Source: Candidatus Pacearchaeota archaeon (lineage in GTDB: Archaea; Nanobdellota; Nanobdellia; Pacearchaeales; UBA284). From it: a stretch of 64,000 bases of DNA. Location of the stretch: positions 80,339-144,338 of the forward strand of contig JAVZYK010000001.1 of the NCBI GenBank assembly GCA_038886195.1, written 5' to 3'. The translations under genes were made by a program, and so were the position numbers. The notes beneath the pieces are model-generated. The model made no database searches and had not been told where the DNA came from. It was given only the letters and a program-made list of their open reading frames with translations. Shown piece after piece: positions 1 to 16,292 of this stretch; positions within the stretch are counted from its first letter, which is position 1, and each line of letters opens with the position of its first letter.

Positions 1-1154
1 AGGTGTCTTTCTACGATATAGCCTATGTCCAATTCTTCAACAAGTTGTTCTCTAAGCTCTTCAGTTATTCTCTTTCTTTTGCCATCTGGTCTTATAATAC
101 CGCTTGCAGCTGGATAATCAATCTTTTTAACAATATCTTTCAATTTTTTTATGTTCTGTGAAGTAACTCTTTCTGGAACTGTTAAGACGCGAGCTATTTC
201 AAATGGTACGCCAACTTCGTTAAGTTCGATATAAGGATCTGGTGATACTACGGTTCTTGAGCTGAAATTTACTCGTTTTCCAGCAAGATTATGTCTTATT
301 CTTCCTTCCTTTCCTTTGATTCTTTCTGTTATCGTTTTTAATGGTTGTCCGCTTCGGTGTCTTGCGGGAGGAATATGAGCAATAGTATTATCAAAGAAAG
401 TTGTCACATGATATTGTAATAGATCCCATAAATCTTCGATAATTACTTCTGGAGCGCCAGCATTAAGATTTTCCCACAATCTTTGATTTGCTCTTACGAT
501 ATCGCTAAGTTTGTGAGTCAAATCATCTTCACTACGTTCTCCCGTTTCTAAAGTGATTGAAGGCCTTACTGTTACAGGAGGTACAAGAAGCAAAGTCAAT
601 ACAGCCCATTCAGGACGACAGAATTTTGGGTTAATGCCAAGCACTTCACAATCTTCATTAGAAATTTTTGCAAGTCTTTCACGGATTTCTATTGGGAATA
701 TTCTTGTTTTTCCTATATAGAAGTTGGTTGGTTTTTCTAATTTTATCTTTTCTTGTTTTGCTCCGCAATGTGGACATTTTTTTACTGTTCTTGCTTTTTC
801 TACCTTTTTTTGTTTTATTTCTTCATCTGTTAAAAGAATTCTGCCGCATTCTTGACAAGTGCTCTTTAGACACAATTCAATAAGTGGAAGGAATTTGATA
901 TGTAAAACAGGCCTTGCTAATTCAATGTAGCCAAAATGTCCTAAACATTCTTTTAATGTTCCACCACAAGTTCTGCATCTAACACCAGGTCCAGAAGCTC
1001 CGAGTCTTAAATCCATTAATCCTCCATCTACTGGGTAGCCATCCATATCGTAAAGTTCTGGAGTTACAATTTTTACTGCCCCAAATTTCTTAATTTGCTC
1101 CGGCGAAAATAATGAAAATTGAATTTCTTTAACTTGCTTGATGATCGGTTCCAT
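1..1154 (-). CDS. rpoA1: DNA-directed RNA polymerase subunit A' (N-terminal part; the gene runs off the window start)
   Basis: Minus-strand ATG at 1154..1152 gives MEPIIKQVKEIQFSLFSPEQIKKFGAV... with the zinc-binding CxxC...CxxC clamp region and LRLG motifs typical of RpoA'/Rpb1 N-terminus. It lies immediately downstream of rpoB' as in the canonical archaeal rpoH-B-A operon. It is not in the supplied ORF track, presumably because it has no in-window stop. Confidence 0.85.
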   Translation of the reverse strand, partial: MEPIIKQVKEIQFSLFSPEQIKKFGAVKIVTPELYDMDGYPVDGGLMDLRLGASGPGVRCRTCGGTLKECLGHFGYIELARPVLHIKFLPLIELCLKSTCQECGRILLTDEEIKQKKVEKARTVKKCPHCGAKQEKIKLEKPTNFYIGKTRIFPIEIRERLAKISNEDCEVLGINPKFCRPEWAVLTLLLVPPVTVRPSITLETGERSEDDLTHKLSDIVRANQRLWENLNAGAPEVIIEDLWDLLQYHVTTFFDNTIAHIPPARHRSGQPLKTITERIKGKEGRIRHNLAGKRVNFSSRTVVSPDPYIELNEVGVPFEIARVLTVPERVTSQNIKKLKDIVKKIDYPAASGIIRPDGKRKRITEELREQLVEELDIGYIVERH

Positions 1155-1168
1155 TTTTTTAATTATTG

Positions 1169-2968
1169 TTAGTCTTCATATTTATTTTTCAATATTAAAC
1201 GAGGCAATAAATGTAATGAAATGAGCTCTTCGAACAAAAGTTTTGAAGCATAAGATATTTCTACAGGCTCTAGTTTGGAATTTCCGCATAAAGGACATAT
1301 TTCTCTTTTTCTTAACTTATCTTTAATGCCAAAGCTCCCGCATTTCGGGCAGATGTTTACTATAACGTTATCTGAACTGAATCTTTCTTTTAGCAGCAAT
1401 GAAGAGCCGTGTGCAACTAATGCATCTTTTTCCATTTCTCCCAATCTTAATGCGCCTCCTTTGGCTCTGCCTTCTACCGGCTGTCTTGTTAAAAGAGTAA
1501 TTTTGCCAGAAGCTCTTGCTTGTATTTTATTTGCTACCATGTATTTCAATTTTAGATAATACATGTTGCCTACAAATATCTTGGCTTCTAAAGGTTTTCC
1601 TGTTAATCCGTCGTAAAGAGTTTCTTTTCCATCAGATCTGAAGCCCAATTCCAATAAGAATTTTTCAAGTTCTTCTATGCTTTGTTCAGAAAATGCTGTA
1701 CCATCTATATTTTCGCCTTTTAAACATCCAACTTTTCCTCCAAGAAGTTCGATAAGATAAGATACAGTCATTCTGCTTGGCAGTCCATGAGGATTGAAAA
1801 TTAAATCTGGCTTAACTCCTTGAGCTGTAAAAGGCAAGTCTTCTTCTGGTGCAATCATTCCGATTACTCCTTTCTGGCCATGCGGAGTAGCGAATTTATC
1901 CCCAAGTTCAGGAATTCTATTGTCTCTTGTCCTTACTTGTACTATTTTTCTACCTTCACCATCTATCGTTATAAAAACAGCATCAACTATGCCCTTTTCA
2001 CTCTGTCTAATAACAGTGCTGTTTTCTTTTTTGGCTCTCGCTAATGAAATTTCTTCCATTTCTAGCAAAAACTTCGGAGGAGAAACTTTGCCTATAACGA
2101 CATCTTCTTCAGAGAGTTCAGCTTCTGGATAAACAATACCGTCTTCTTCAAGATTCCTATAAACTTTTTCAGTTCTATAGCCGCTTACATCTTTTGTTGG
2201 AATGCAAATTTCATCTTTTAAATTACCAGTATAATGAAGTTCTACTGAAGTATATGGCCTAAAATAAGTGCTACGTCCCAAACCTCTTTCTATTGAAGCT
2301 TTATTTATAACTATAGCATCACTCATGTTATAACCTTCGAAAGGCATTATTGCTACCACGACATTTTGTCCGGCCGGATAGAAATTTTTAATAGTGTCAT
2401 AGACGAAACTCTTAACTATTGGTTTCTGAGGGTAATGAAGTATGCTTACATCAGTATCTATTAAGTCAAGATAGTTTGCAGCGTATAAGCCCAAAGCTTG
2501 TTTTTGTGTTTTACTACCTCTGTTAAGTCTAGAACTATGATCGTGATTGGCAAAAGGTACTAAGGCAGTGATTAAACCAAACATGGCTATTGGACTTATT
2601 TCAACATGAGTATGTTCTGGAGTTAATTCATCAGGAGTCATTGCTATTAATAAGTTGTCTTCTTCTGCAGCATCTACATACTCTATTATGCCTAGATTAA
2701 CCAAATCATCCCAGTTTAATTCTCCTTTGATTATTGCTTCTATATGCTCTTGCTTAAGCATTGACTTGCCATCTTTTGCTATAATTAGAGGTCGTAGAAC
2801 TCTGCCGCTATCCGTGGTTAAAAAAATAGTGTTTATTATTTTATCAAATCTTACACTCAATTCTTGAGGAAATTCACCGTTTCTTCTTTTTTCTCGGATT
2901 TGTTGGACAAATGTTTCAGCATTGTCTACTTCGCCTATAAATCTTCCATTATAAAATACATCAACCAT
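1169..2968 (-). CDS. rpoB1: DNA-directed RNA polymerase subunit B' (C-terminal half of split RpoB)
   Basis: 599 aa. GDKFATPHGQKGV catalytic-region motif and a C-terminal Zn ribbon (CPKCGS...CPLCGN). It follows B'' directly, which is the archaeal split rpoB arrangement. Confidence 0.92.
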   Translation of the reverse strand: MVDVFYNGRFIGEVDNAETFVQQIREKRRNGEFPQELSVRFDKIINTIFLTTDSGRVLRPLIIAKDGKSMLKQEHIEAIIKGELNWDDLVNLGIIEYVDAAEEDNLLIAMTPDELTPEHTHVEISPIAMFGLITALVPFANHDHSSRLNRGSKTQKQALGLYAANYLDLIDTDVSILHYPQKPIVKSFVYDTIKNFYPAGQNVVVAIMPFEGYNMSDAIVINKASIERGLGRSTYFRPYTSVELHYTGNLKDEICIPTKDVSGYRTEKVYRNLEEDGIVYPEAELSEEDVVIGKVSPPKFLLEMEEISLARAKKENSTVIRQSEKGIVDAVFITIDGEGRKIVQVRTRDNRIPELGDKFATPHGQKGVIGMIAPEEDLPFTAQGVKPDLIFNPHGLPSRMTVSYLIELLGGKVGCLKGENIDGTAFSEQSIEELEKFLLELGFRSDGKETLYDGLTGKPLEAKIFVGNMYYLKLKYMVANKIQARASGKITLLTRQPVEGRAKGGALRLGEMEKDALVAHGSSLLLKERFSSDNVIVNICPKCGSFGIKDKLRKREICPLCGNSKLEPVEISYASKLLFEELISLHLLPRLILKNKYED

Positions 2969-2971
2969 TTT

Positions 2972-4450
2972 TTATTTGAAAGTTTTCATTCCCATTTTTT
3001 CTAAAGCATTTATGAATTCCTTTTCTTCAAGTTTCACCGTGGTGCTTACTTTGGCTAACATAGATAAATTTTTTCTTAATCCTATGCTTGTTCCTTCTGG
3101 AGTTTCTATAGGACAAAACCTTCCATAATGGGTTGGATGCAAAGTCCTCGCTTTGAAATTTTCCTGTTCAGACGGAAGTAAGCTTACAACTCTTTGTAGT
3201 TGAGATAATACTGCTAAGCCATTTGTTTTATCCATATTCTGTGTTACTCCTGTTCTTTGTCCTATCCATGAACCGGTAGCTAATGCGCTTTCAATTCTAT
3301 GTGAGAATAAAGTTGACTTTGCAAGACTTTTGATCGAATAAAATTTTTTCTTCCTTGCAATTTTTAATAAATTGTGTTGTAAATCTCTAACAAATATAGT
3401 TAAATTCACTCTGAACAAGTCGGTTAACAAATCACCACTTAAACGAACACGTTTATTAGCATAATGGTCTTTATCGCTTTCTAGTTTTAATTCCTTAGCT
3501 ATTAGAAAATGTTTTATTAATTTACATAATGTGAGCGCTTTTTCTTTCCTGTTTTCTGGTTTTGTTCCTATATGCGATAAGAAAGTTGAGTCAAGTCTAG
3601 CTTTAACTCTATCAAGAATTTCTTTTTTCGTTCCTTCTAGTGACATTAGTTGTGCTATTGCAATCATCGCACTTTCTGAATCTTGAATTGAAGCATGTTC
3701 ATATAGATTTACTATAAGCGCTTCAGATTCCTTTCCTATAAGAGATGCAATATCAGAATCTTTTGTTATGCCCAGCGCTTTTATAACAAGAATTGCAGGA
3801 ATGTTCTTGAACCTAGAGAATGAAACATAAATGATGCCTTCTGAAGATTGATTAATTGTTATAGGAATTCTATAAGCTCCGCGGCTTGAAAAAAGTCTTA
3901 AAGCAAGTCCTTTTGGAGTTTCTTCTGTAAATGCTTGATTTTGCGCTAAATCTTCTATCATCACTAAAACTCGCTCGTTTCCATTAATTATAAAGTATCC
4001 TCCTGGATCGTTAGGATCTTCATAATTTTTAATCAATTCTTCAGAAGACATTCCATGAATATTACAATATTTGCTTTTAACCATTATCGGAATTTTTCCT
4101 ATTTCCACTGGAGTATATTCTTTATTTCCTATTCCTATTTCAAGATAGATAGGAGCGGAATATGTTATTTTTCTAAGTCTTGCTTCAATTGGCAAAATGT
4201 TGCGAATGGAACCGTCAGCTTCTACGATTTGCGGCTTACCTACGCTAATTTTTCCTAACCACAATTCTATTTCATCTTTAGGAATTTCTTCATTAATTGT
4301 ATCGATTATTTGTTGTAGTTTATTGTCTATAAAATCATTAAATGAGAGAATGTTAGATTCTATTAAAGAATGTTCTTGAAGATATTTTTTAATTAATATG
4401 TTCATCGTATCTTTTTTCTTTATTTCGTCCTTATTTTCTACATCTGTCAT
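2972..4450 (-). CDS. rpoB2: DNA-directed RNA polymerase subunit B'' (N-terminal half of split RpoB)
   Basis: 492 aa with RpoB N-terminal lobe and protrusion-like sequence. Its position between rpoH and rpoB' matches the canonical archaeal operon. Confidence 0.9.
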   Translation of the reverse strand: MTDVENKDEIKKKDTMNILIKKYLQEHSLIESNILSFNDFIDNKLQQIIDTINEEIPKDEIELWLGKISVGKPQIVEADGSIRNILPIEARLRKITYSAPIYLEIGIGNKEYTPVEIGKIPIMVKSKYCNIHGMSSEELIKNYEDPNDPGGYFIINGNERVLVMIEDLAQNQAFTEETPKGLALRLFSSRGAYRIPITINQSSEGIIYVSFSRFKNIPAILVIKALGITKDSDIASLIGKESEALIVNLYEHASIQDSESAMIAIAQLMSLEGTKKEILDRVKARLDSTFLSHIGTKPENRKEKALTLCKLIKHFLIAKELKLESDKDHYANKRVRLSGDLLTDLFRVNLTIFVRDLQHNLLKIARKKKFYSIKSLAKSTLFSHRIESALATGSWIGQRTGVTQNMDKTNGLAVLSQLQRVVSLLPSEQENFKARTLHPTHYGRFCPIETPEGTSIGLRKNLSMLAKVSTTVKLEEKEFINALEKMGMKTFK

Positions 4451-4461
4451 TTTTAATACAG

Positions 4462-4671
4462 CTATGGAACAACCAAACGATAATAAAAGACTTTTCCAGT
4501 TTTAGTTTTGCGTTCTATTTTAATTATATCTCCAACTTTTGCGTCTTCTGGCAAAGCAGGATCTTTCTTTCTAATTTTTGGCAGCTGTTGTGGAGTAATA
4601 TTAAATTTTTCTAGCAGTGCCTTAGATTCTTCTGGCTTTAGTTTCGTATGCTTTGGCTGTAGAACATGCAT
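4462..4671 (-). CDS. rpoH: DNA-directed RNA polymerase subunit H (Rpb5-like)
   Basis: 69 aa (MHVLQPKHTKL...GDIIKIERKTKTGKVFYYRLVV), typical RpoH/Rpb5 C-terminal-domain sequence. It is the first gene of the rpoH-B''-B'-A' operon. Confidence 0.85.
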   Translation of the reverse strand: MHVLQPKHTKLKPEESKALLEKFNITPQQLPKIRKKDPALPEDAKVGDIIKIERKTKTGKVFYYRLVVP

Positions 4672-4863
4672 TTTTTCGACTATAAAAACAAAAATATCAT
4701 AGATAGTTTTTAAATCTTTTGGTTTCTTGTTTTTTCATTCTTATTGATTATTTTTATTATATATTTTATTATTTTTAATTGTAGCCACTATTTAATAGAT
4801 AAACAATCGAAAGATTTATAAATAATGTTATCTTTGAAAAATAGTAAAAATTTATAACAAAAA

Positions 4864-5652
4864 ATGACATTAAAAAGCGATTTAATAAAAAAAATTAAAT
4901 ATCATTTTGGCTTAAATATTTATGAAAGCAAAGTTTGGCTTGCTCTTTTGAGTAAGTCTATAGCCACAGTTGGCGAGATTGCAGAAATTTCAGGAGTTCC
5001 TAGAAGCAGGGTTTATGATGTTCTAGAAAGTTTAGAAAAGCAAGGTTTTGCTATAGCCAAATTAGGAAAACCTATAAAATATATTGCCGTAAAACCAGCA
5101 GTAGTTATAGAACACCTTAAAAATAATATTTTAAAAAATGCAGAAGAAAAAGCAAAAAATTTGGCTTCTATAAAAGAAACCGAAGAATATAGAGAGTTGG
5201 AGTTATTGCATAGCAAAGGCATTAAACCTGTACAACCAGAAGATCTTAGTTCCGCAATAAAAGGCAAACAGAATATTTATGCTCATATGAAGGAACTAAT
5301 ATCAAATGCAGAAAAAGAAGTGACAATTGTTTCCAATGCAGAATCTCTAAGACAAGAAGCATATTTTTTGAAACCCATATTTGATAAATTAAAAGCACAG
5401 GGTAAGGCAATTCATATAGCAGTAAGCGATAATCCTGAAAGCAAAGTCAATTTATCAGCTTTGTCAAAAGAATTGGGAGTGCCTATTAGAAAGATAAAGA
5501 TTAATGCAAAATTTTGTATAGTTGATAATTCAAAGCTTTTGGTTTTTGTTACGCCAAATGCGGATGATGAAAAAGAATTGGCTGTATGGATAAATAGTCC
5601 ATTTTTCTCTAGAGCTTTAACTACATTTTTATTACCTATTTGGCACGCTTAA
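4864..5652 (+). CDS. TrmB-family transcriptional regulator (paralog 1)
   Basis: 262 aa. N-terminal winged HTH (VWLALLSKSIATVGEIAEISGVPRSRVYDVLESLEKQGF) typical of TrmB. Its N-terminal 80 aa are nearly superimposable on the product of 31970..32788. Confidence 0.7.
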   Translation: MTLKSDLIKKIKYHFGLNIYESKVWLALLSKSIATVGEIAEISGVPRSRVYDVLESLEKQGFAIAKLGKPIKYIAVKPAVVIEHLKNNILKNAEEKAKNLASIKETEEYRELELLHSKGIKPVQPEDLSSAIKGKQNIYAHMKELISNAEKEVTIVSNAESLRQEAYFLKPIFDKLKAQGKAIHIAVSDNPESKVNLSALSKELGVPIRKIKINAKFCIVDNSKLLVFVTPNADDEKELAVWINSPFFSRALTTFLLPIWHA

Positions 5653-5725
5653 ATTTAATTTTTATATTTTCTGTAGAATTATTCAAGAGAAAAAAAGAAA
5701 AAAAACAAAAATAGAAAAAAGAGTT

Positions 5726-6070
5726 TTAACCTTTAGCCATAGAGAATACTGATTTTAGGGCTACGATTATTGTAGCTGGTACGAATAACATCAACATGTT
5801 GTTTAAGATATTCTGCAAGAAAGCTATGTCCCCTATTTTTAACATTGCAAAAACTGAACCACCAAAGTAGCTAACGATTACAAGAATCGCGCCAGCCAAT
5901 AAGAAAGGCTGTACTTCTACATCTGCTATGTTCAATAGTCCTATGATAATACCTATTATCACTAGAAGCCATCCAAGCCATAAGCCATATGCGAAAAATC
6001 CAAAGATTACTGCAAGAATAACTCCAATAAGGAAAGCCCACGCTCCTATTAAATTCTTTTTTTTAGACAT
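5726..6070 (-). CDS. small hydrophobic membrane protein, function unknown
   Basis: 114 aa with 3-4 predicted TM helices. No recognisable motif. Confidence 0.4.
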   Translation of the reverse strand: MSKKKNLIGAWAFLIGVILAVIFGFFAYGLWLGWLLVIIGIIIGLLNIADVEVQPFLLAGAILVIVSYFGGSVFAMLKIGDIAFLQNILNNMLMLFVPATIIVALKSVFSMAKG

Positions 6071-6165
6071 TTTACCTCCTTTTTATTTTAATATTAAATC
6101 TAGAAGACTAATCTCTTTTTAAAGTTTTTGTTTATTTTTTTCTATTATTGAGTGAATTTTAATAG

Positions 6166-6238
6166 AGCGCGGGGTGGGACTCGCACCCACGAATACTCGC
6201 TCTGCAGGCGAGCGCCGTTGCTACTGGGCCACCCGCGC
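6166..6238 (-). tRNA. tRNA-Cys (anticodon GCA)
   Basis: Hand-folded cloverleaf on the minus strand. Acceptor GCGCGGG/CCCGCGC, anticodon stem CTCGC/GCGAG with loop CTGCAGA, T-arm GTGGG-TGCGAGT-CCCAC. 73 nt with no encoded CCA. GC-rich island in an AT-rich background. Confidence 0.85.
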
Positions 6239-6302
6239 TTAAATTATTAATAAAATCATTAAGAATCAGTGCTTTTTAAATTTTTTATTGAATTGTTTAA
6301 TT

Positions 6303-6575
6303 TTATTTGAAAGAAATTTCTTTTAAAAACTCAAGGATTTCTTGTTCTGTTTTATATTCCTTTTTGGTTCTGTTTTTAATGTATAGGGCATGATTATAGC
6401 CAATTATTAATTTAAAATCTCCTTTAAAAATTTCTATCTCTGGATTTTTGTTATATCTTAGAATAAAATTGTAACCTTTATCCAACGCTAGTATTTTTCT
6501 TCCAATTTCTTCTATTGTCATCAATGGGCTTTTAATTTTTTCTTCTATGTTTTTATTTTTTCCAACTTCAGTCAT
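6303..6575 (-). CDS. hypothetical protein
   Basis: The track ORF 6303..6617 would overlap tRNA-Arg. Starting at the internal Met (MTEVGKNK..., about 90 aa) avoids the overlap. No motif recognised. Confidence 0.35.
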   Translation of the reverse strand: MTEVGKNKNIEEKIKSPLMTIEEIGRKILALDKGYNFILRYNKNPEIEIFKGDFKLIIGYNHALYIKNRTKKEYKTEQEILEFLKEISFK

Positions 6576-6704: not shown

Positions 6705-7394
6705 TTATTTGTTATCTTCAACTGCTTTTTTAATATTCTCTAAAAAAGCATTTTTACAAATTTTACTAAATGCCACTACTTTATTTTTTCCATGCTCTTT
6801 TGCATATCTTAATGCAATATTTGCTTTTTCAAAAAGAGTTTGTTCGTTACTCTTTTCTTTGTTTTTTGGCATAAATCTCTCATAAAGGCTTTTTATTTCT
6901 ACATTTTCTTTTTCTAAAGGTTTGTTTTGAGCCACCCCTATACTAACAGTAACACCATAGTTAAATAAAAATTTGTCCGCCATAATTAAATTACGAAGTC
7001 GTTCGGCCATCTTTTCTGCTTCTTCTTCTTTAGTTTCGGGCATAAGTACTACAAATTCTTCTCCACCGAAACGAGCCGCAATATCTGTTTCACGAATGTT
7101 GCTTTTTATTATAGTAGCAACAAGTTGTAAAATTTCATCGCCTCGAAGATAGCCGTAATTGTCATTTATTTTTTTAAAATCATCTATATCTATAATGATT
7201 AATGAAAGAATTCTACCGTAGCGTTCAGAAATTGCTAGCTCATGTTTAAACTCAGAACTAAAATATCTGTAATTGTAAAGCTGCGTTTTTGTGTCTACAG
7301 TTGCTAGATAGTATAGTTTTGCTATTTTTTGTGCGTCCAATGTTATTTCTTTTTTGTCACTGTTTTGTCCAAGAATTTTTTTAAGCCAATCCAT
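6705..7394 (-). CDS. GGDEF-domain protein (putative diguanylate cyclase, GGEEF variant), no sensor domain
   Basis: 229 aa with the full GGDEF signature set: YNYRYF (the DxLTGLxNRR region), IIIDIDDFKKINDNYGYLRGDEIL, RFGGEEFVV, SIGVA, ALRYAKEHGKNKV. Confidence 0.75.
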   Translation of the reverse strand: MDWLKKILGQNSDKKEITLDAQKIAKLYYLATVDTKTQLYNYRYFSSEFKHELAISERYGRILSLIIIDIDDFKKINDNYGYLRGDEILQLVATIIKSNIRETDIAARFGGEEFVVLMPETKEEEAEKMAERLRNLIMADKFLFNYGVTVSIGVAQNKPLEKENVEIKSLYERFMPKNKEKSNEQTLFEKANIALRYAKEHGKNKVVAFSKICKNAFLENIKKAVEDNK

Positions 7395-9207: not shown

Positions 9208-9972
9208 TTAAATTTTAATTTCTAATGCTAACCCAAAAATGTTTGTAACATCTTTTCCAGAGGGCCATTTCTGTTCATTATAGAATTCTAATGCTCCAGT
9301 TCTTTTTTTATTTGTAATGCCCAAACCAAGCTTTATGTTTTCATCAAGTTTTTGTCCTATTTGAGTTAGATTTAAGTTTATTAAAGGTTTATAAGAAAAA
9401 TAAAATTGTTTAAAGAATTTATAAAATTCTAACTTCATTCCAGTTTCATAATTTATGTCATAATTCCTTGGATTAATTATTTTTCCAATATAAATCTGCC
9501 AGCAATTTTGAAATTGAGAAAAGGGGTTTTTAGTTAGGGTAATTTTTTCTAAATTATAAGATTTTATTTCAGCTTCGTTTTTATTATCAACTAAATGCTG
9601 GCACCAGTGTTGGTGTGAAATTGATAATTCTATATTTTTACCAAGGGAGTGGCTTAAAGAAGCATTCCATTTGTAGAATTCATATTTCGGAGAATGAGAA
9701 GCGTAAAATGAAGCGAAAGGATTTACTTCTTTCATTAAAGTCCCTTTGGAACAATTAAAATTAAATGAAATGCCTTTGTATTTTAAAAGTTGAGATTCAA
9801 GTCCAAGTTCGACGGTTCTGTCTGTGTTCGTTATGTCTGTTATCTTCTGAATGATGATGCCTGAATTGAAATTGAATTTTGCTTTTGGCAACAACTCCAG
9901 AGAACTTGAAGTATTTAAAGAATTAGCAATTATTAAAGAAGCAAGTGAAGCGACTAAAGGAATGATTGACAT
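9208..9972 (-). CDS. secreted hypothetical protein (Sec-type signal peptide)
   Basis: 254 aa. N-terminal hydrophobic signal (MSIIPLVASLASLIIANSLN). Rich in N/K/F/Y, with no catalytic motif recognised. Confidence 0.45.
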   Translation of the reverse strand: MSIIPLVASLASLIIANSLNTSSSLELLPKAKFNFNSGIIIQKITDITNTDRTVELGLESQLLKYKGISFNFNCSKGTLMKEVNPFASFYASHSPKYEFYKWNASLSHSLGKNIELSISHQHWCQHLVDNKNEAEIKSYNLEKITLTKNPFSQFQNCWQIYIGKIINPRNYDINYETGMKLEFYKFFKQFYFSYKPLINLNLTQIGQKLDENIKLGLGITNKKRTGALEFYNEQKWPSGKDVTNIFGLALEIKI

Positions 9973-10093
9973 TTTGTTTTTATTTATTAAATTTAATTTT
10001 CAAATTTTTAATTTTTTAGTTTCGTTTATTTTTAAAATTTCCTCAATAAACAAACATAAAATTTTATAAAGAAAAAGAAGGGAAAAATAAAAA

Positions 10094-10166
10094 TAGGTAT
10101 AAAAAATACCTAAAAATAGGTAAAATATTTAAAATAAAAAGATTTAAATACCTAAAAATAGGTAAA
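10094..10166. promoter_or_regulatory. repeated palindromic operator-like elements upstream of the HEPN/MNT pair
   Basis: Half-sites TAGGTA(10094-99), TACCTA(10107-12)-AAAA-TAGGTA(10117-22), TACCTA(10149-54)-AAAA-TAGGTA(10159-64). The 20-nt unit AATACCTAAAAATAGGTAAA occurs twice, at 10105-10124 and 10147-10166, 42 bp apart. The second copy ends 6 bp before the ATG at 10172. Confidence 0.6.
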
Positions 10167-10171
10167 TATCT

Positions 10172-10705
10172 ATGAAAAGAGACGCTGAGAGCACATTTCT
10201 CGAATTATTAAAAATAAAAGCAATAGTTAAACTAACTGATATAGAAAGAGAAGACTATTTAAGATTTTTTGAGTCTACTTATAAAGATAATCTAGAAACT
10301 GCCATAGATAATTTAAGAAAACACCCTAGATGGAGTATTATCTCGGGCTATTATGCAATGCATGATTTGGCCAAGTTATTTCTTGCTAAAAAATATAGTT
10401 TAAAGATTGTCGATAGAGTGCATTTTGCAACTATTATTGCCTTGTCTAGCGTCTTGAAAGAAAATGAACAACAAATATCAGAAGCGATAGCTCTATTAAA
10501 AAAAGCAAAAGAAATTTTTGATGAAAATATTATTGGCATTAAACCAACAGAATTAGTTTCTTATTTAAGAAAGGGGAAAAGTGAAAGAGAAAAGGCCCAA
10601 TACTATCATCCAAAAATAGATTTAAAGGAAATTTCTGAAAAAGCTTCGTACTTTCTTGATGGCGTTGTTAAACCTTTTATTAAACTAATGGAGAAAATAA
10701 TATAG
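10172..10705 (+). CDS. putative HEPN-domain protein (toxin-like partner of the adjacent nucleotidyltransferase)
   Basis: 177 aa, predicted all-helical. C-terminal R-x6-H (SEREKAQYYH) fits the HEPN Rx4-6H motif. Directly upstream of a minimal nucleotidyltransferase gene and directly downstream of a repeated palindrome. Confidence 0.45.
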   Translation: MKRDAESTFLELLKIKAIVKLTDIEREDYLRFFESTYKDNLETAIDNLRKHPRWSIISGYYAMHDLAKLFLAKKYSLKIVDRVHFATIIALSSVLKENEQQISEAIALLKKAKEIFDENIIGIKPTELVSYLRKGKSEREKAQYYHPKIDLKEISEKASYFLDGVVKPFIKLMEKII

Positions 10706-10743
10706 ATAAAAAATGAAAAATAAAGAAATGCAAAAATAATAAA

Positions 10744-11313
10744 ATGTTAAGTACAATTTTATCATCAAAGTCAAATTTCAAAGTTTTAAAACTATTCTCT
10801 CTTGCACCAGGCAAACCATTAACAAGAAAGACAATTAAAGAATTTACAAAATTGCCCAATGTTTCTTTAGATATGGCTTTAAATAAATTAATTAAAGAAG
10901 AAATTTTAGAAGAAGAAAAAAGGCTTTTAAAATTAAATTTATCTAATGAAAAAACGATAGCAATTCTTGAACTACTAAAAAAAGAATCAAAAATGTTAAG
11001 GGAGATTCCTTACAAGATATGGTTGCTTTTATTTGATTTTACAATGGCGGCACAAAAAACAAGATTTAAGAAAGCATTTTTATTTGGCTCGTGGGCAAAA
11101 CACATTGCTAGAGAAGATTCTGATGTTGATATAGCATTAATAATAGAAAAAAAAGACATAAAACAAGAAATGCTTGTTGAAAAATTGGCTGAACACTTAG
11201 AAGATAAATACAAAAGAAAGATCCAGCTGCATTTTTTTGAAGAAGAACAATTCAAAAAAGCCAGAACCACTTTAGCAAAAGAGATACAAAAAGAAGCAAT
11301 TGAGATTTTTTAG
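10744..11313 (+). CDS. nucleotidyltransferase (MNT/Pol-beta superfamily) with N-terminal winged-helix domain
   Basis: 189 aa. LFGSWAKHIAREDSDVDIALI is the hG[GS]x9-13Dh[DE]h minimal nucleotidyltransferase signature. The N-terminal about 90 aa look like a wHTH. Confidence 0.65.
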   Translation: MLSTILSSKSNFKVLKLFSLAPGKPLTRKTIKEFTKLPNVSLDMALNKLIKEEILEEEKRLLKLNLSNEKTIAILELLKKESKMLREIPYKIWLLLFDFTMAAQKTRFKKAFLFGSWAKHIAREDSDVDIALIIEKKDIKQEMLVEKLAEHLEDKYKRKIQLHFFEEEQFKKARTTLAKEIQKEAIEIF

Positions 11314-11406
11314 GAAAAATCAATCAAAGCAAATAACAAAAAGCAAATAAAACATAAAATTTTATAAAGGCAAAAATCTTAAAAGTTAAGGAAAAAAGAA
11401 GGGAAA

Positions 11407-12819
11407 ATGGTGAAAAGAGGAGCGTTGTTATTAGCTGGCATTATAATCTTCTTTATTTTTGCAAGCTCATTAACATCTGCAGCAAGTTGTTATTGTGATT
11501 CTTGTGCAGATTGTACAAGTAAATTGAATAATTCTTCTTGCACAGAAGTAAAATTAACAGCAAACATAATAAACTTTGTAGGCACTTGCATTGATAATCC
11601 TGCAGGTTTCAATAACAAAGTGTTTGATTGCCAAGGATATAAAATAGATGGAGATGATCTGAGATATAATTATGGAATTTACTTAAATGGCAAGCAAAAC
11701 AATACAATAAAAAATTGTGTAATTACTGACTTTTATGTTGGAATTTATTTATGGTTTTCATGGGAAAACACCCTAACAAACAACACTGCAAGCTCAAATA
11801 ATTTTGGAATTTATTTATATTATTCATCAGACAACGAGATAACAAATGCAAATGTAAGAGAAAATGAGGAGATTGGAATTGTGTTATCCTCTACTAATAA
11901 TACTAAAATTAAAAATTGTATAATTAAAGGAAATCCTTGCGATAAGTGTATATTTGTCAAAGGAAGTGGGGCGCGTCATAACTATATTACTAAAACTGAA
12001 ATTCATTCTTGTGCAACAGGAATTTTAATTTATGATTATGGTATAGGTTCTTATGCTAGTTTAACAGTTAATCAAAGCTATATTCACGACAATACTGACC
12101 AAGGCATTAGGATTTATGGCGGTAATGAAATGGGTTTAGTTTTAATAGATAGCGTAATAACTGCCAACGGAAAAGGAGTGTATTTGGATCATCGATGGGG
12201 AGCACATAAAGATCCTAAAGGATTTCTTTACAATTCCACAATCTGTAATAATACACTTGATTTGCAAATAGATACTAAAGATAATTATGATAAAGATTGT
12301 GCTGGAAGCTATGCTAAGACAATTGGTGGCACTAACGCTAATTGTCCTAATCTTAATAATTTTTGTCCAACCTTTCCTTCTTCAGGTTGTGTTTGGCAAG
12401 GAGTTTGTTCAAGATACGTACCGGCAAAAGGTGCTTCTAGCACTTTTGAATTCCCTAACATAAATTTTTGTCCTGCAATTCCAGACGAGTGCAAAAATCA
12501 ATCACCGGATCACATTGTTTGCCGCAATAACGAGGCTTATAATTGTCAGGGTTGCGGCGGATGGTATCGTGATGTTAGTTTAGATTATATATGTAAACCA
12601 AATTATTGTTTAGGGAACTATTCGACGGGATGGGTAAAATATAGAAATCATGAGAATTGCACTTCAATTAACGATTTTTATTCGGGCTGTGTAATTGACA
12701 TTACTGGAGATGGGATTTATGATAAACTTTGTTGTCCTGTTTATGATAGTCTAAATTACAATATAGCTTTGTTTGAGCCAACATCTGATATGTACTCCTT
12801 TTGTCGAAGTGTAAAATGA
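11407..12819 (+). CDS. secreted cysteine-rich protein with right-handed parallel beta-helix (PbH1/NosD-like) repeats
   Basis: 470 aa. The N-terminus MVKRGALLLAGIIIFFIFA could be either a Sec or a class III signal peptide (KRG|A). Repeated NNxxGIYL and NxIxNC rungs, many Cys. Paralogous to the partial ORF at 62904..64000 (shared DC[QN]GYKI[DQ]GDD...KNC[VI] block). Confidence 0.65.
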   Translation: MVKRGALLLAGIIIFFIFASSLTSAASCYCDSCADCTSKLNNSSCTEVKLTANIINFVGTCIDNPAGFNNKVFDCQGYKIDGDDLRYNYGIYLNGKQNNTIKNCVITDFYVGIYLWFSWENTLTNNTASSNNFGIYLYYSSDNEITNANVRENEEIGIVLSSTNNTKIKNCIIKGNPCDKCIFVKGSGARHNYITKTEIHSCATGILIYDYGIGSYASLTVNQSYIHDNTDQGIRIYGGNEMGLVLIDSVITANGKGVYLDHRWGAHKDPKGFLYNSTICNNTLDLQIDTKDNYDKDCAGSYAKTIGGTNANCPNLNNFCPTFPSSGCVWQGVCSRYVPAKGASSTFEFPNINFCPAIPDECKNQSPDHIVCRNNEAYNCQGCGGWYRDVSLDYICKPNYCLGNYSTGWVKYRNHENCTSINDFYSGCVIDITGDGIYDKLCCPVYDSLNYNIALFEPTSDMYSFCRSVK

Positions 12820-15800
12820 GAAATATGAAAAAAATAAAAATAGAGAGAAAAATAAAAACAGAGGAATTATTTATGCTAACTTTTTTCGTGATAGCTTTTT
12901 TATTTGTCTCTTCGTTTTCAAAAGCCAATGGACTACTACACTGTACTGGTTGGGGTTTTCGGAATATTACAAATTATTGGGGCTGTTGTAATGGTAGTCA
13001 TTTTGATGGCACTAAAGGAATAGCGATGCCTTATGTGATGCAACAAACAGTTTTTTACAGCTACCATTGTTGTGGAGATAATGATGGCGTTTGTCCAGAA
13101 GATTTTAATAGCTCGCATGCTGGCGGGCGTATAAGTTGTGCTCCTAATGGAGACCCTGATTGTGGCTCGCTGCCGCTCCAATGCAACCTAACTTCTGCGA
13201 CGATAACTCCGAACTGTAGGGGCATTCCTGGGAACACTCAGGGATGTGATGTTGGAGATAATATAACTGTGACAGCGACCTTTGCGGGAAATTGTCAGGA
13301 AGTTAAGGCTCTTGAAACTAAGATTAAAGATACAAATTGTGAATTGTCTTTAGAAATTCCTTGCACAGTTAGTAGCAGTGGAAGCTGTAGTGGCGTTGCT
13401 ACTATTCGAGTAGTGCCAGATGGTTGTGAAAATAAAATAGTATATTTAAGAAATGCGACTGCATGGAATGAAACTCTTGCCGGTGCAGGACAAGTGAGGA
13501 TGGTTGTTACTTATAACGACACCCAACAACATCTTAACGGAGGTTTCAAGTTCTCTGAAAAAATTTTAAAGTTTATTGATTTGATTATATGGCCGCCGAG
13601 CGCGCTGATCCAAGTTGGAAACTTGTTTGAATGGAACTTGACAGCAGTGTTTTTCAATCAAACGAGCGGTGAGAATGTCACAAAGTATGTTGCAAATGAC
13701 GACCCTTACTCGCAGTTTTTTTATTCTAATCCGAATGTCGCGCATCATCCTGGCTCGCCTTATCCTAACAGAATCTCCAAAGGATTCTCTGCAGGCGAAA
13801 CCAATGTTGTAGGAACGTGGCCATGGCCTTGGAATTACAAACAAGACACTGCCCTATTAAAAGTTATCAATCCAACAGGTTGTGTCATATCTTTAGCAGC
13901 AATAATACCTTACTGCAGGCCTGGCGGCTGTAATGTTAGCGACAAGATCAATTTGAATGTAAAAGTCAATAGCCCTAGCTGTGATCCTGATTCAAATCCT
14001 TCAAGAATAGTTATGAAAGGACATGATTCTTCGCTTTTGTGCAATGTGGAGCTGAGTGTTGATGGAATCTATTGCGATGGCCTTGGCAACTGCAACAAAA
14101 ATTATACTATAAATTCAATTTCTGATGATTGTGCTGGCAAGACTGTCATGATTAAAGTGACTGAACTTTATAATGCAACCGGTCCTTTAGCGAGCTTGCA
14201 GGGCAACTTCGGCTCATTTCAGTTTTGGGCGCCGGCGCCTGAAGAACCGAGCTATATTACATTATGGCCTAGAGATTGGCATGCTAAAGTTGGCGATAGT
14301 GTTTCTTATGACGTTTGGGCCCATTATCCTACCAATCCTCCTAAAAATGTAACAACTGATGAATATACAAATTATAGTTCGAGCAATAACGTGGTTGCTT
14401 ATCAAATTAGTCCTAAAAACGTGTTTTATGGCAACAGTACTGGCACTACAACAATAACTGCAAGATATCCTAAAGGCTATAATTATGCTAAAGAAAATAG
14501 CACTTCACTTTATGTTTATCCTCATACTGATTGCGAGATTTTGGATGCTAATATGAGTTTTAATTGTGATGATAGTATTGGCGGCATTCCTCAATGTAAT
14601 AATGGCGACACAATTGATTTAGGAGTTGTTGTTAATCAACAATGTTATAATTTGAATATTGCAAAAATACAAATGAGAGCTCATGAAAAGTTTAATCAAG
14701 CAAATCATGGCTCTTGCAGTTTTGATATGAATGCGAGCTTTACTCAACAAGCCTGTTCCTATAATGATGGAAATTATTTCTGCCATGGAACATGGACTGT
14801 TGGAGTTCCTCCAAGTTGTCAAGGTAAAAACGTTATTGTTGATGGAGTTATAGTTTATAATTATTCAGGTAATTTTTTAGATTCAAGACAAGGCTATATA
14901 GGAAACTTTAGTTTTGTTGAAACGCCTCAGTCATTAAGAGCGATTATTGTTACTCCAAATGAAGGCGCAACATTTAATCTCTCTGAAAACCCTGTTGCTA
15001 ATTTTACACAAGCAAGCATTGGCCAGATAACTAATTGGACATGGCTTTATAGAAAGATAACAATTCCACAATCACCTTGGACAGTTCTTAGATCAACTTC
15101 AAACCCGAATGAAGCAAACATAACTAATTACGATTTTAGTTATTATGGTTGGAAAGGGGGCAATTATGATATAAACTTGACTGTTAGCAATTTAAGCTTA
15201 AGTGATGATGATATTGTTGAGATAACTTTAATTGACAACTATACGCCAATTGCCAATATAACTCGACCTTTGTGGCATGTCATACTTTATAACAATAGCG
15301 TAGTTTTTGATTCTGAATGCTTTGATCCTAACAATAATCCTTTAAACGTTACATGGTATTTTGATGATAATACTAATGTTAGCGGTCCTTATTTACAATT
15401 CAAAAATGTAACTCATATTTTTGGCCAAGCAAAACCCAATTTCTTTAGAGCATGGCTTAATGTGACTGATGGTCAAAATTCGTCAGTAGATTATGTTGAA
15501 TTTAAAATAGCTTATTGTTATCATAACAACAATTATTATTTTGCAGGTTCTTGTATTGGGCAAAATAATTTGTATTGTAATAAGAATGATTGTAATGAAT
15601 TTGGTGAATGCAATGTTGTTGCTGATTGTAGAAAATGTAATAACTGTCCAAGCAGCTATTATTGTGATGGGATGACTGGCAATTGTAGTCAAGGACCAGG
15701 ACCACAAGGCTGTCAACAATATGATCAGCAACAGTGTAACGCTCAGATAGGTTGTTATTGGGACGCTTGTAAAGCTTGTAATGATCCACAAAAACCAATT

Positions 15801-16292
15801 CGCTCTTGTTCTGATTATACTAGACCAAGTGCTTGTAATAATGACAGTACTAATTGTCAAGTAGGAATGCCTAATCATGGTTTAGGAACAGAAATTTGTG
15901 ATACATTGATTGAAACTCCTCCTGGAAGTGGCAATTATTCTTTAGTTAATAATTGTCACTGTGAATGGAATTCAAATATTAATAATTGTACTTTAGCTTA
16001 TACTTTAATTCCACAAAACCAAAATGGCGGAGGCCAGCCGCAACCAGAAGATTGCCAGTATCAAATAATAGCAGAAGATTGTGGAAGCTGTCAAGTTAGT
16101 GGAAGGGAGGGAAGAAATGTTAGTTACAAAAGAGTTTTTGGCGATCCTAATGTTTGTGTTGATCGTTCATGGTGTCAGCCTTGTGGCTTGTTGTTCAGAC
16201 CATTACCATTCTTTGAATGGTGGCAAGCCATTGTTGTAGTTGGATTGGTTGTTGTAGTTTATGCCTTTATGCTTAGAAGAAAATATTTATAA
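12816..16292 (+). CDS. giant cysteine-rich surface protein (about 1158 aa) with N-terminal signal peptide and C-terminal TM anchor
   Basis: The track start at 12801 is a TTG. ATG at 12816 overlaps the upstream stop (ATGA), with a further ATG at 12825. Signal peptide LFMLTFFVIAFLFVSSFSKANG, more than 70 Cys, many N-x-S/T sequons. The C-terminal WWQAIVVVGLVVVVYAFMLRRKYL is a single TM with a short basic tail. No enzymatic motif. Confidence 0.7.
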   Translation: MRNMKKIKIERKIKTEELFMLTFFVIAFLFVSSFSKANGLLHCTGWGFRNITNYWGCCNGSHFDGTKGIAMPYVMQQTVFYSYHCCGDNDGVCPEDFNSSHAGGRISCAPNGDPDCGSLPLQCNLTSATITPNCRGIPGNTQGCDVGDNITVTATFAGNCQEVKALETKIKDTNCELSLEIPCTVSSSGSCSGVATIRVVPDGCENKIVYLRNATAWNETLAGAGQVRMVVTYNDTQQHLNGGFKFSEKILKFIDLIIWPPSALIQVGNLFEWNLTAVFFNQTSGENVTKYVANDDPYSQFFYSNPNVAHHPGSPYPNRISKGFSAGETNVVGTWPWPWNYKQDTALLKVINPTGCVISLAAIIPYCRPGGCNVSDKINLNVKVNSPSCDPDSNPSRIVMKGHDSSLLCNVELSVDGIYCDGLGNCNKNYTINSISDDCAGKTVMIKVTELYNATGPLASLQGNFGSFQFWAPAPEEPSYITLWPRDWHAKVGDSVSYDVWAHYPTNPPKNVTTDEYTNYSSSNNVVAYQISPKNVFYGNSTGTTTITARYPKGYNYAKENSTSLYVYPHTDCEILDANMSFNCDDSIGGIPQCNNGDTIDLGVVVNQQCYNLNIAKIQMRAHEKFNQANHGSCSFDMNASFTQQACSYNDGNYFCHGTWTVGVPPSCQGKNVIVDGVIVYNYSGNFLDSRQGYIGNFSFVETPQSLRAIIVTPNEGATFNLSENPVANFTQASIGQITNWTWLYRKITIPQSPWTVLRSTSNPNEANITNYDFSYYGWKGGNYDINLTVSNLSLSDDDIVEITLIDNYTPIANITRPLWHVILYNNSVVFDSECFDPNNNPLNVTWYFDDNTNVSGPYLQFKNVTHIFGQAKPNFFRAWLNVTDGQNSSVDYVEFKIAYCYHNNNYYFAGSCIGQNNLYCNKNDCNEFGECNVVADCRKCNNCPSSYYCDGMTGNCSQGPGPQGCQQYDQQQCNAQIGCYWDACKACNDPQKPIRSCSDYTRPSACNNDSTNCQVGMPNHGLGTEICDTLIETPPGSGNYSLVNNCHCEWNSNINNCTLAYTLIPQNQNGGGQPQPEDCQYQIIAEDCGSCQVSGREGRNVSYKRVFGDPNVCVDRSWCQPCGLLFRPLPFFEWWQAIVVVGLVVVVYAFMLRRKYL

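Follow-up and report, generated by a model that had tools for sequence, protein, structure and literature searches.

We find that a 64-kb stretch of DNA (hereafter the window; 32% G+C) from a Candidatus Pacearchaeota (DPANN) metagenome-assembled genome (MAG) carries a two-gene module that is probably an autoregulated HEPN/MNT system. Gene 1 (10172-10705, plus strand) encodes a 177-amino acid (aa) HEPN protein, and gene 2 (10744-11313, plus strand) encodes a 189-aa protein in which a winged helix-turn-helix (wHTH) is fused to a minimal nucleotidyltransferase (MNT) with a GS...DxD motif. In this reading, the wHTH-MNT protein would repress its own operon and neutralize its HEPN partner by nucleotidylation. 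A preliminary description of the window had named the two genes in this order, and both open reading frames (ORFs) are where it placed them. Upstream of gene 1 lies a duplicated palindrome that, on the sequence evidence set out below, is most likely the operator of the gene 2 wHTH. We computed the folds of the two proteins, their obligate pairing, the operator architecture, and the co-variation of operators with the recognition helix, using a comparison set of 160 related loci (L001 to L160) drawn from genomes and metagenomes.

A duplicated palindrome in the module promoter

The 20-mer AATACCTAAAAATAGGTAAA occurs in two exact copies (10105-10124 and 10147-10166) whose starts are 42 bp apart, as had been described. 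We found no further match with up to three mismatches within the 64-kb window, and none of 100 shuffles reached two matches. Both 20-mers contain a perfect TACCTA-N4-TAGGTA dyad, here called O1 (TACCTA-AAAA-TAGGTA, 10107-10122) and O2 (identical to O1, 10149-10164), neither of which is assigned to a strand. The arm centers of each dyad are 10 bp apart, which is one helical turn. No other occurrence of the dyad was found in 64 kb at up to two mismatches. An additional TAGGTA half-site, also noted earlier, is present farther upstream (10094-10099, plus strand), and we read it as the remnant of a third operator with a footprint of ~10084-10099 and a degenerate left arm. Because the TAGGTA hexamer itself is not enriched in the window (14 found versus 18 expected), this distal half-site is meaningful through its position only. 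Its center lies ~22 to 23 bp upstream of O1, which is the second spacing class of the family.

Two TATA-like elements accompany these sites. The first (TTTAAAAT, 10128-10135, plus strand), read from the sequence and from related promoters, abuts O1, which lies directly upstream of it; most relatives also have a TATA-like element abutting an operator (GGTAAAGTATTTAAATAAA). The second (TTTAAATA, 10143-10150, plus strand) overlaps the left arm of O2 by 2 nt and starts 29 nt before the ATG, a position (-29) that coincides with the family mode (-29 to -32 from the start codon). From the position of this second element, the bicistronic mRNA is probably leaderless or near-leaderless. O2 lies between the second element and the start codon. 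Its 20-mer ends at 10166 and the ATG begins at 10172, so the reported adjacency holds, with a gap of five bases (TATCT). The center of O1 is at -57 from the ATG, and we place it with the family cluster at -55 to -41; that of O2 is at -15.5, and we place it with the cluster at -15 to -1. The window layout (half-site, 23 bp, O1, 42 bp, O2) matches the family plan exactly.

Operator architecture across the family

Dyad-symmetric repeats are found in almost every related promoter. We compared the 110 nt upstream of gene 1 (130 unique upstream regions) with shuffles and with the regions that precede other genes of these loci. Exact direct repeats of at least 10 nt were present in 47% of the 130 promoters, compared with 5% in either control, and inverted-repeat arms of at least 8 nt in 26%, compared with 5 to 7% in the controls. 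Two or three full dyads occur in 75 of the 97 loci that we classified. Relative to the start codon, the TATA box begins at -26 to -32, and the dyad centers form three clusters, one at -15 to -1, one at -55 to -41, and one around -75. The spacing between neighboring dyads is quantized: among 98 adjacent operator pairs, 62 are 41 to 42 bp apart, 21 are 22 to 23 bp apart, and five are 63 to 64 bp apart.

The operators fall into five classes: TACC-N8-GGTA (the class of the window), TACT-N8-AGTA, CACTNNAGTG, ATCA-N6-TGAT, and ACAG-N4-CTGT. Each class has its own signature at the start of the gene 2 recognition helix (NNVPLD, NNLSLD, GNKVLxKF, GGNSLF, and GNEAVN). The class A helix NNVPLD goes with TACC-N8-GGTA, and the class C helix GNKVLxKF with CACTTAAGTG. 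Residues 38 to 44 of gene 2 are class-specific; no column in the protein is more informative than position 40, and no region more than helix 3. This is the pattern that a specificity determinant would be expected to show, with the proviso that the correlation of helix and operator is confounded by phylogeny.

Dyads are also concentrated in the module's own promoters. Their density is ~10 to 15 per kb there and ~0.01 to 0.08 per kb (~1000-fold rarer) in the remaining 518 kb of locus flanks, a comparison that is partly circular because the operator classes were themselves derived from promoters. Copies of the palindrome outside the promoter are absent from the window and essentially absent elsewhere in the related loci. 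The earlier suggestion that the palindromes are the operators of this operon gains support from their position, 41- to 42-bp spacing, and symmetry, all kept across ~100 divergent loci, and from a sequence that tracks the recognition helix. The module has what is expected of an autoregulated toxin-antitoxin (TA) operon, that is, a wHTH on one partner and palindromes overlapping the core promoter, to which that wHTH is predicted to bind. Separately, we observed that, with few exceptions among the loci, the coding strand of the dyad spacer is rich in A (for example, TACC-AAAAAAAT-GGTA), an asymmetry that is unexpected for a purely symmetric dimer site.

Gene 1 encodes a divergent HEPN protein

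Homologs, a structural model, and profile links identify the gene 1 product as a divergent member of the HEPN-T proteins of AF0298/UPF0332-like type. The 177-aa product is 100% identical to the NCBI protein QXK80_00520 from a Pacearchaeota MAG. It has 368 homologs, nearly all of them unnamed and from DPANN archaea, two of which are labeled UPF0332 by the Joint Genome Institute (JGI). Direct Pfam and NCBIfam scans of gene 1 returned only noise, and the profile of 86 homologs found nothing among PDB sequences, even at an E value of 10. Weak direct matches to PF05168 were seen in eight of these 86 homologs. When the family profile was searched exhaustively against 1.84 billion representatives, only 141 clusters at 50% identity were recovered. 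The distant tail of that search scores above the gathering threshold of PF05168 (HEPN) and shares with the gene 1 family the pattern W..YYAM..H..R-x3-QY. The same tail matches the UPF0332 protein AF0298 (2hsb) at 6.8e-12 and the HEPN chain A of 9xbd at 9e-11. The gene 1 family aligns with the PF05168 tail in hhalign at a probability of 99.3% (E = 1.3e-20), so that homology to PF05168 is reached through a transitive link where direct searches fail.

The AlphaFold model built on the alignment is confident [predicted local distance difference test (pLDDT), 91.3; predicted template modeling score (pTM), 0.89] and has the all-alpha, up-down four-helix core of HEPN domains. The top PDB matches in Foldseek are all HEPN proteins (AF0298 2hsb, TT1696 1ufb, sacsin HEPN 3o10, HepT 7bxo/6m6u, and 4nqf), with probabilities of 0.97 to 1.0, template modeling (TM) scores of 0.47 to 0.63 on the target, and modest E values (0.011 at best, for 2hsb). 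The HEPN fold that had been proposed for the protein is therefore borne out by the model, the Foldseek matches, and the profile links to PF05168 and AF0298. In the model, R139 to Y144 are at the end of core helix 3, and H84 is in an insert between core helices 2 and 3.

Across 86 sequences, W54, Y60, Y61, H64, K68, H84, Q143, Y144, Y145, and F161 are invariant, and R139 is conserved in 85. The key codons are at 10421-10423 (H84), 10586-10588 (R139), and 10601-10606 (Y144-Y145), all on the plus strand. The C-terminal R-x6-H on which the preliminary description had based its HEPN assignment is present in the window protein (R139, H146). Column 146, however, holds His in only five of the 86 sequences (Thr in 51 and Ser in 21), and we reject R-x6-H as the family motif: It is a coincidence of the window sequence. 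The canonical Rx4-6H catalytic motif was not found in the gene 1 family. The family signature is instead an AF0298-type R-x3-Q-Y-Y plus the alternative His H84, with an invariant Tyr at R+5 and Thr or Ser at R+7. AF0298-like HEPN-T proteins are described as having kept the Arg and lost the canonical His while having an alternative conserved His (Anantharaman et al., PMC3710099). By this analogy, the putative active site of gene 1 comprises R139 and H84 rather than a canonical Rx4-6H.

Gene 2 fuses a winged helix to a nucleotidyltransferase

The model of gene 2 (pLDDT, 95.5) has helices at residues 9 to 20, 28 to 35, and 39 to 51, a beta hairpin at 55 to 64, and a long helix at 69 to 84, followed by the nucleotidyltransferase. 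The N-terminal wHTH (residues 1 to 66; 10744-10941, plus strand) has the topology H-H-H-beta-beta wing, with residues 39 to 51 (10858-10896, plus strand) as the recognition helix. Foldseek matches this half to MarR, Sso10a, TubR, and HlyU. The C-terminal MNT domain (residues 90 to 189; 11011-11313 including the stop, plus strand) carries G115-S116 (11086-11091) and D127-x-D129 (11122-11130), and Foldseek matches it to the MNT antitoxins 8xeo, 8xeh, and 7bxo [for 8xeo, TM score of 0.76 on the target and root mean square deviation (rmsd) of 2.4].

Profile searches support the nucleotidyltransferase call that had been made from the motif. The segment GSWAKHIAREDSDVDIALI matches Polbeta/NTP_transf_2, and the Pfam matches for Polbeta (PF18765, 7e-12) and NTP_transf_2 (PF01909, 1e-6) are both above the gathering cutoff; the wHTH is supported by the model and Foldseek. 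Gene 2 has both the minimal nucleotidyltransferase motif hG[GS]-x9-13-DxD and the alpha-beta-alpha-beta-alpha-beta core. Among 66 gene 2 homologs, G115, S116, and D129 are invariant (66 of 66), and D127 is present in 65. Because these residues are conserved, the enzyme looks active. Sequence matches in the PDB include MntA 5yep (1.3e-6) and chain E of 9xbd (8.6e-8). As an aside, 9xbd is an unpublished complex of a HEPN protein and a nucleotidyltransferase; its chain E is the best solved sequence match of gene 2, and its HEPN chain A ranks second to 2hsb against distant relatives of gene 1. Our literature search found no paper for PDB 9xbd, nor any for UPF0332 together with HEPN.

The two genes are an obligate pair across the related loci

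Pairing of the HEPN gene with the wHTH-MNT gene is obligate. A gene 1 homolog is directly followed by a wHTH-MNT homolog in 134 of 139 informative loci, and the two genes usually overlap by 4 to 11 nt. We rejected the loci that seemed to have no MNT gene as counterexamples, because they were cut by contig ends or fell outside our ORF rule; tblastn recovers the wHTH-MNT in these apparent exceptions, and the only real one is L001 (JAIMAW010000035.1). This locus is the closest relative of the window module, with a HEPN protein that is 80% identical. Its gene 2 (4100-4348) ends after residue 72, which leaves the wHTH but no MNT domain, while the HEPN gene and both operators are intact, and a cytidylate kinase-like gene (cmk) follows downstream. 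L001 represents either a natural HEPN plus wHTH-only arrangement or a chimeric contig.

The hosts are Pacearchaeota, Woesearchaeota, Nanoarchaeota, Aenigmatarchaeota, Micrarchaeota, Nanohalarchaeota, and Altiarchaeota. Methanocella is represented as well, with the complete genome of Methanocella sp. MCL-LM, a cultured methanogen, among its members. The module has no conserved gene neighborhood (the most common neighbor family is present at 11 of 160 loci); neighbors that recur include a PIN protein, further HEPN proteins, and an AAA ATPase (adenosine triphosphatase). Two genomes have two copies of the module each (L007/L035 in JAHJRD01 and L006/L062 in JASEIA01), and the operator classes of the paralogs differ: CACT..AGTG and ACAG..CTGT in the first, and CACT..AGTG and a TACC..GGTA-like class in the second. 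This is consistent with insulation between paralogs, in two cases only. The patchy distribution, multiple copies, and unrelated flanks are as expected of a mobile addiction (TA) or defense module. Within Pacearchaeota, the site after dph5 is common to the window and L001.

A proposed mechanism and its alternatives

The mechanism that we consider likely is one of autoregulation combined with neutralization of the HEPN protein, in which we infer DNA binding, repression, ribonuclease (RNase) toxicity, and nucleotidylation. The gene 2 protein would dimerize, and its wHTH domains would bind the TACCTA-N4-TAGGTA dyads. Dimers could occupy both O1 and O2, whose four-turn separation would put them on one face of the helix. 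With the distal site included, they would flank the TATA box and mask the point where transcription of the probably leaderless bicistronic mRNA begins. Occupied sites are proposed to occlude the TATA box, the B recognition element (BRE), and the start, thereby blocking TBP/TFB or RNA polymerase and so repressing the operon. The bound dimers may be bridged, plausibly by the HEPN partner, as the fixed spacing suggests. By analogy with type VII HepT/MntA, the MNT domain would bind the HEPN protein and nucleotidylate a hydroxyl residue in its R-x3-Q-Y-Y-[T/S] segment. The nucleoside monophosphate (NMP) acceptor of HepT is the Tyr of RX4HXY (PMC11586414). Because the homologous segment of gene 1 is R-x3-Q-Y-Y-[T/S], the acceptor in gene 1, if any, would differ from that of HepT.

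A bolder version of this proposal is tentative. The family might constitute a distinct HEPN-T/wHTH-MNT system, centered on DPANN archaea and found in Methanocella as well, in which dimers bound exactly two and four turns apart at a leaderless promoter are bridged by HEPN oligomers into a nucleoprotein complex of fixed geometry (conditional cooperativity). A few helix residues would then specify at least five insulated operator classes, and the HEPN protein (R139/H84) would be switched by nucleotidylation at Y144/Y145 or T/S146, not at the tyrosine of RX4HXY.

Several points weigh against autoregulated neutralization. The evidence for the whole family is computational. There are two candidate TATA-like elements, and the transcription start is a predicted one. 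Both the canonical HEPN catalytic His and the acceptor Tyr of RX4HXY are absent from the gene 1 family, so RNase toxicity and Tyr-AMPylation are not simply transferable from HepT. The NCBIfam MntA model (NF047752) matches gene 2 at 3e-11 with 43.2 bits, below its cutoff of 60; by sequence, gene 2 is a homolog of MntA, not an equivalog. L001, which has an intact HEPN gene but no MNT domain, speaks against the HEPN protein being lethal when the enzyme is missing, provided that the contig is neither misassembled nor chimeric. The phylogenetic confounding and partial circularity mentioned above belong here as well.

Some of the same facts would suit a pair that is not a TA system at all, namely, a two-subunit nucleotidyltransferase or ligand-sensing regulator whose wHTH couples the state of the complex to its own transcription. 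The noncanonical HEPN protein would then be the subunit that binds a substrate or nucleotide, a role proposed earlier in the case of HI0073/HI0074 and of the C-domain of kanamycin nucleotidyltransferase. The absent Rx4-6H His fits this view, as does L001, with its intact HEPN gene beside the wHTH part of gene 2 only. The shared chromosomal site after dph5 within Pacearchaeota is consistent with vertical inheritance, and HEPN domains without catalytic residues have been described as exapted substrate-binding domains (PMC3710099). We nevertheless think this explanation unlikely. H84, R139, Q143, Y144, and Y145 show little or no variation among 86 sequences and match the alternative AF0298-like active site (PMC3710099); the distribution is patchy, some genomes have multiple copies, and flanks are unrelated in nearly all loci. 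In addition, the only operator copies found in the window and the locus flanks are those in the promoter of the module itself, which points to self-regulation only. Less probable by far is that the palindromes form RNA hairpins (a 5' untranslated region structure or terminator) or are a generic AT-rich repeat rather than protein operators. The region does fold better than shuffles (-14.7 kcal/mol, z = -3.7), which is a trivial consequence of the palindromes. O1 and the distal site precede the TATA elements and hence fall outside the mRNA; the upstream gene is divergent, so a terminator is not expected; and the stems are only 6 bp each with two G-C pairs. An Rfam scan of 9900-11450 gave no match. 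Spacing of 41 to 42 and 22 to 23 bp and the tie to the recognition helix are properties of a DNA-protein complex, and the dyad is unique in 64 kb and ~1000-fold depleted outside promoters. We rejected the hairpin or terminator interpretation on the basis of site position, spacing, helix co-variation, the divergent upstream gene, and the lack of an Rfam family.

A defensive role is possible, although we hold it only tentatively. In this scenario, the module would be an antiviral abortive-infection system of the PDC-M05 type, a PADLOC candidate defense system composed of a nucleotidyltransferase (M05A) and a HEPN protein (M05B) that is enriched in archaea (PMC12988326). The HEPN RNase would be held by the MNT protein and freed on infection, and the operators would set the expression level. 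All 66 gene 2 homologs match PDC-M05A at full length (best E = 9.5e-15); PIN, HEPN, and AAA ATPase genes are recurrent neighbors; and the module of Methanocella sp. MCL-LM adjoins both a canonical PDC-M05 pair and a large superfamily 1 (SF1) helicase-like gene. However, the PDC-M05B models match neither gene 1 of the window nor more than one of the 86 family members, and PDC-M05 itself is a candidate without experimental validation (PMC12988326). No relative of the module was found on IMG/VR viral contigs, which we regard as neutral, and PHROGs gave nothing useful. This alternative concerns the biological role rather than the mechanism and is compatible with autoregulation and neutralization by the wHTH-MNT protein.

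Genomic surroundings

The Methanocella locus (L073, NZ_CP187259.1) has its module at 3983-5031, with a TTG start and the layout half-site, O1, TATA, O2; in the numbering of NZ_CP187259.1, the module is at ~1,527,087-1,528,135. Next to it on the minus strand is the canonical PDC-M05 pair, with the wHTH-MNT gene (5790-6320) followed by the HEPN gene (5352-5789), and the SF1-helicase-like gene encodes 987 aa. The region 92-6320 looks like a small defense island.

The genes directly downstream of the module in the window (11407-16292, plus strand) encode a secreted 470-aa protein of the beta-helix/NosD-like kind (PF13229, 2e-21) and a Cys-rich protein of 1163 aa whose hydrophobic C-terminal segment is possibly membrane-anchoring. 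The module had been thought to mark the edge of this surface-protein island. We reject that idea: L001 has its module at the same dph5 site without the island, and cmk follows in its place. Upstream, at 9208-9972 (minus strand), a 254-aa ORF with a hydrophobic N terminus and no Pfam match is divergent from the module. It is probably a lineage-specific insertion, because it is absent from the otherwise syntenic L001 locus. Farther away (6705-7394, minus strand) is a 229-aa GGDEF-domain protein (PF00990, E = 3e-39) with a GGEEF motif, syntenic with L001 783-1484. Diguanylate cyclase-type domains are uncommon in archaea.

Implications

Few small modules of archaea are more abundant than HEPN/MNT pairs. 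What this family adds is an operator architecture common to its members, comprising a spacing rule, positional classes, and helix-operator classes. With ~100 natural promoter variants, a recognition helix whose relation to the operator can be read, and a strict 42/23-bp spacing, the family could serve as a compact system in which to study how leaderless archaeal promoters are repressed and how paralogous modules keep their specificities insulated. It also extends the noncanonical, AF0298-type HEPN proteins into the genome-reduced DPANN archaea, where defense and addiction modules are poorly known. Because one member is in a cultured methanogen (Methanocella sp. MCL-LM), experiments are feasible. 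For biotechnology, the family could give a set of orthogonal archaeal repressor/operator pairs.

Comparison with known systems

The closest described relatives of the module include the type VII HepT/MntA systems (Shewanella SO_3166/SO_3165, Aphanizomenon, and Legionella; 5yep, 7bxo, 7ae9, and 8xeh), which likewise pair a small HEPN protein with a GS...DxD MNT protein. The MNT domain of gene 2 has its best structural and sequence match among type VII antitoxins. Gene order differs: The MNT antitoxin gene comes first in type VII, whereas the HEPN gene comes first here, an order rightly called the less common orientation in the preliminary description (PMC3710099). The HEPN protein differs as well, being of the AF0298/PF05168 type, with R-E-K-A-Q-Y-Y-(T/S/H) and an alternative His, rather than having the RX4HXY of type VII HepT. 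Last, the MNT protein has an N-terminal wHTH and a linker helix here, whereas Shewanella MntA has no recognizable DNA-binding domain. Shewanella MntA does bind palindromes in its own promoter (PMC4621449). Makarova et al. (2009) proposed that the MNT-HEPN module might require a DNA-binding partner in trans (PMC2701414); in the family described here, the DNA-binding domain is instead fused in cis.

Such a fusion is not unique to this family, because PDC-M05A also matches it. Gene 2 matches M05A across the wHTH and MNT domains (7.6e-14, full length), as do all of its 66 homologs. The differences from PDC-M05 are the HEPN partner and the gene order. Gene 1 has no M05B match, the single match in its family (1 of 86) is at 0.0018, and PADLOC would not call the module a PDC-M05 system. 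In the one canonical PDC-M05 pair that we examined (L073, Methanocella), the MNT gene precedes the HEPN gene, whereas here the HEPN gene precedes the MNT gene.

On the HEPN side, the best structural match of gene 1 is the AF0298/UPF0332 HEPN-T protein (2hsb, PF05168; E = 0.011, probability 1.0). The two have in common W..YYAM(H/Y), an R-x4-Y ending helix 3, and a conserved His in the insert that separates core helices 2 and 3. Gene 1 has ~50 more residues and carries an extension at its N terminus and an insert of two helices. Its sequence has diverged too far to be matched directly by Pfam or by PDB sequences, and its family is small and self-contained. In its proposed regulation, the module resembles MqsRA, HigBA, and similar autoregulated type II TA systems of reversed gene order, which also have the toxin gene first, a DNA-binding antitoxin, and two similar palindromes over the promoter. 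The folds are unrelated, however, and here the candidate antitoxin is an enzyme and the promoter is archaeal (TATA/BRE).

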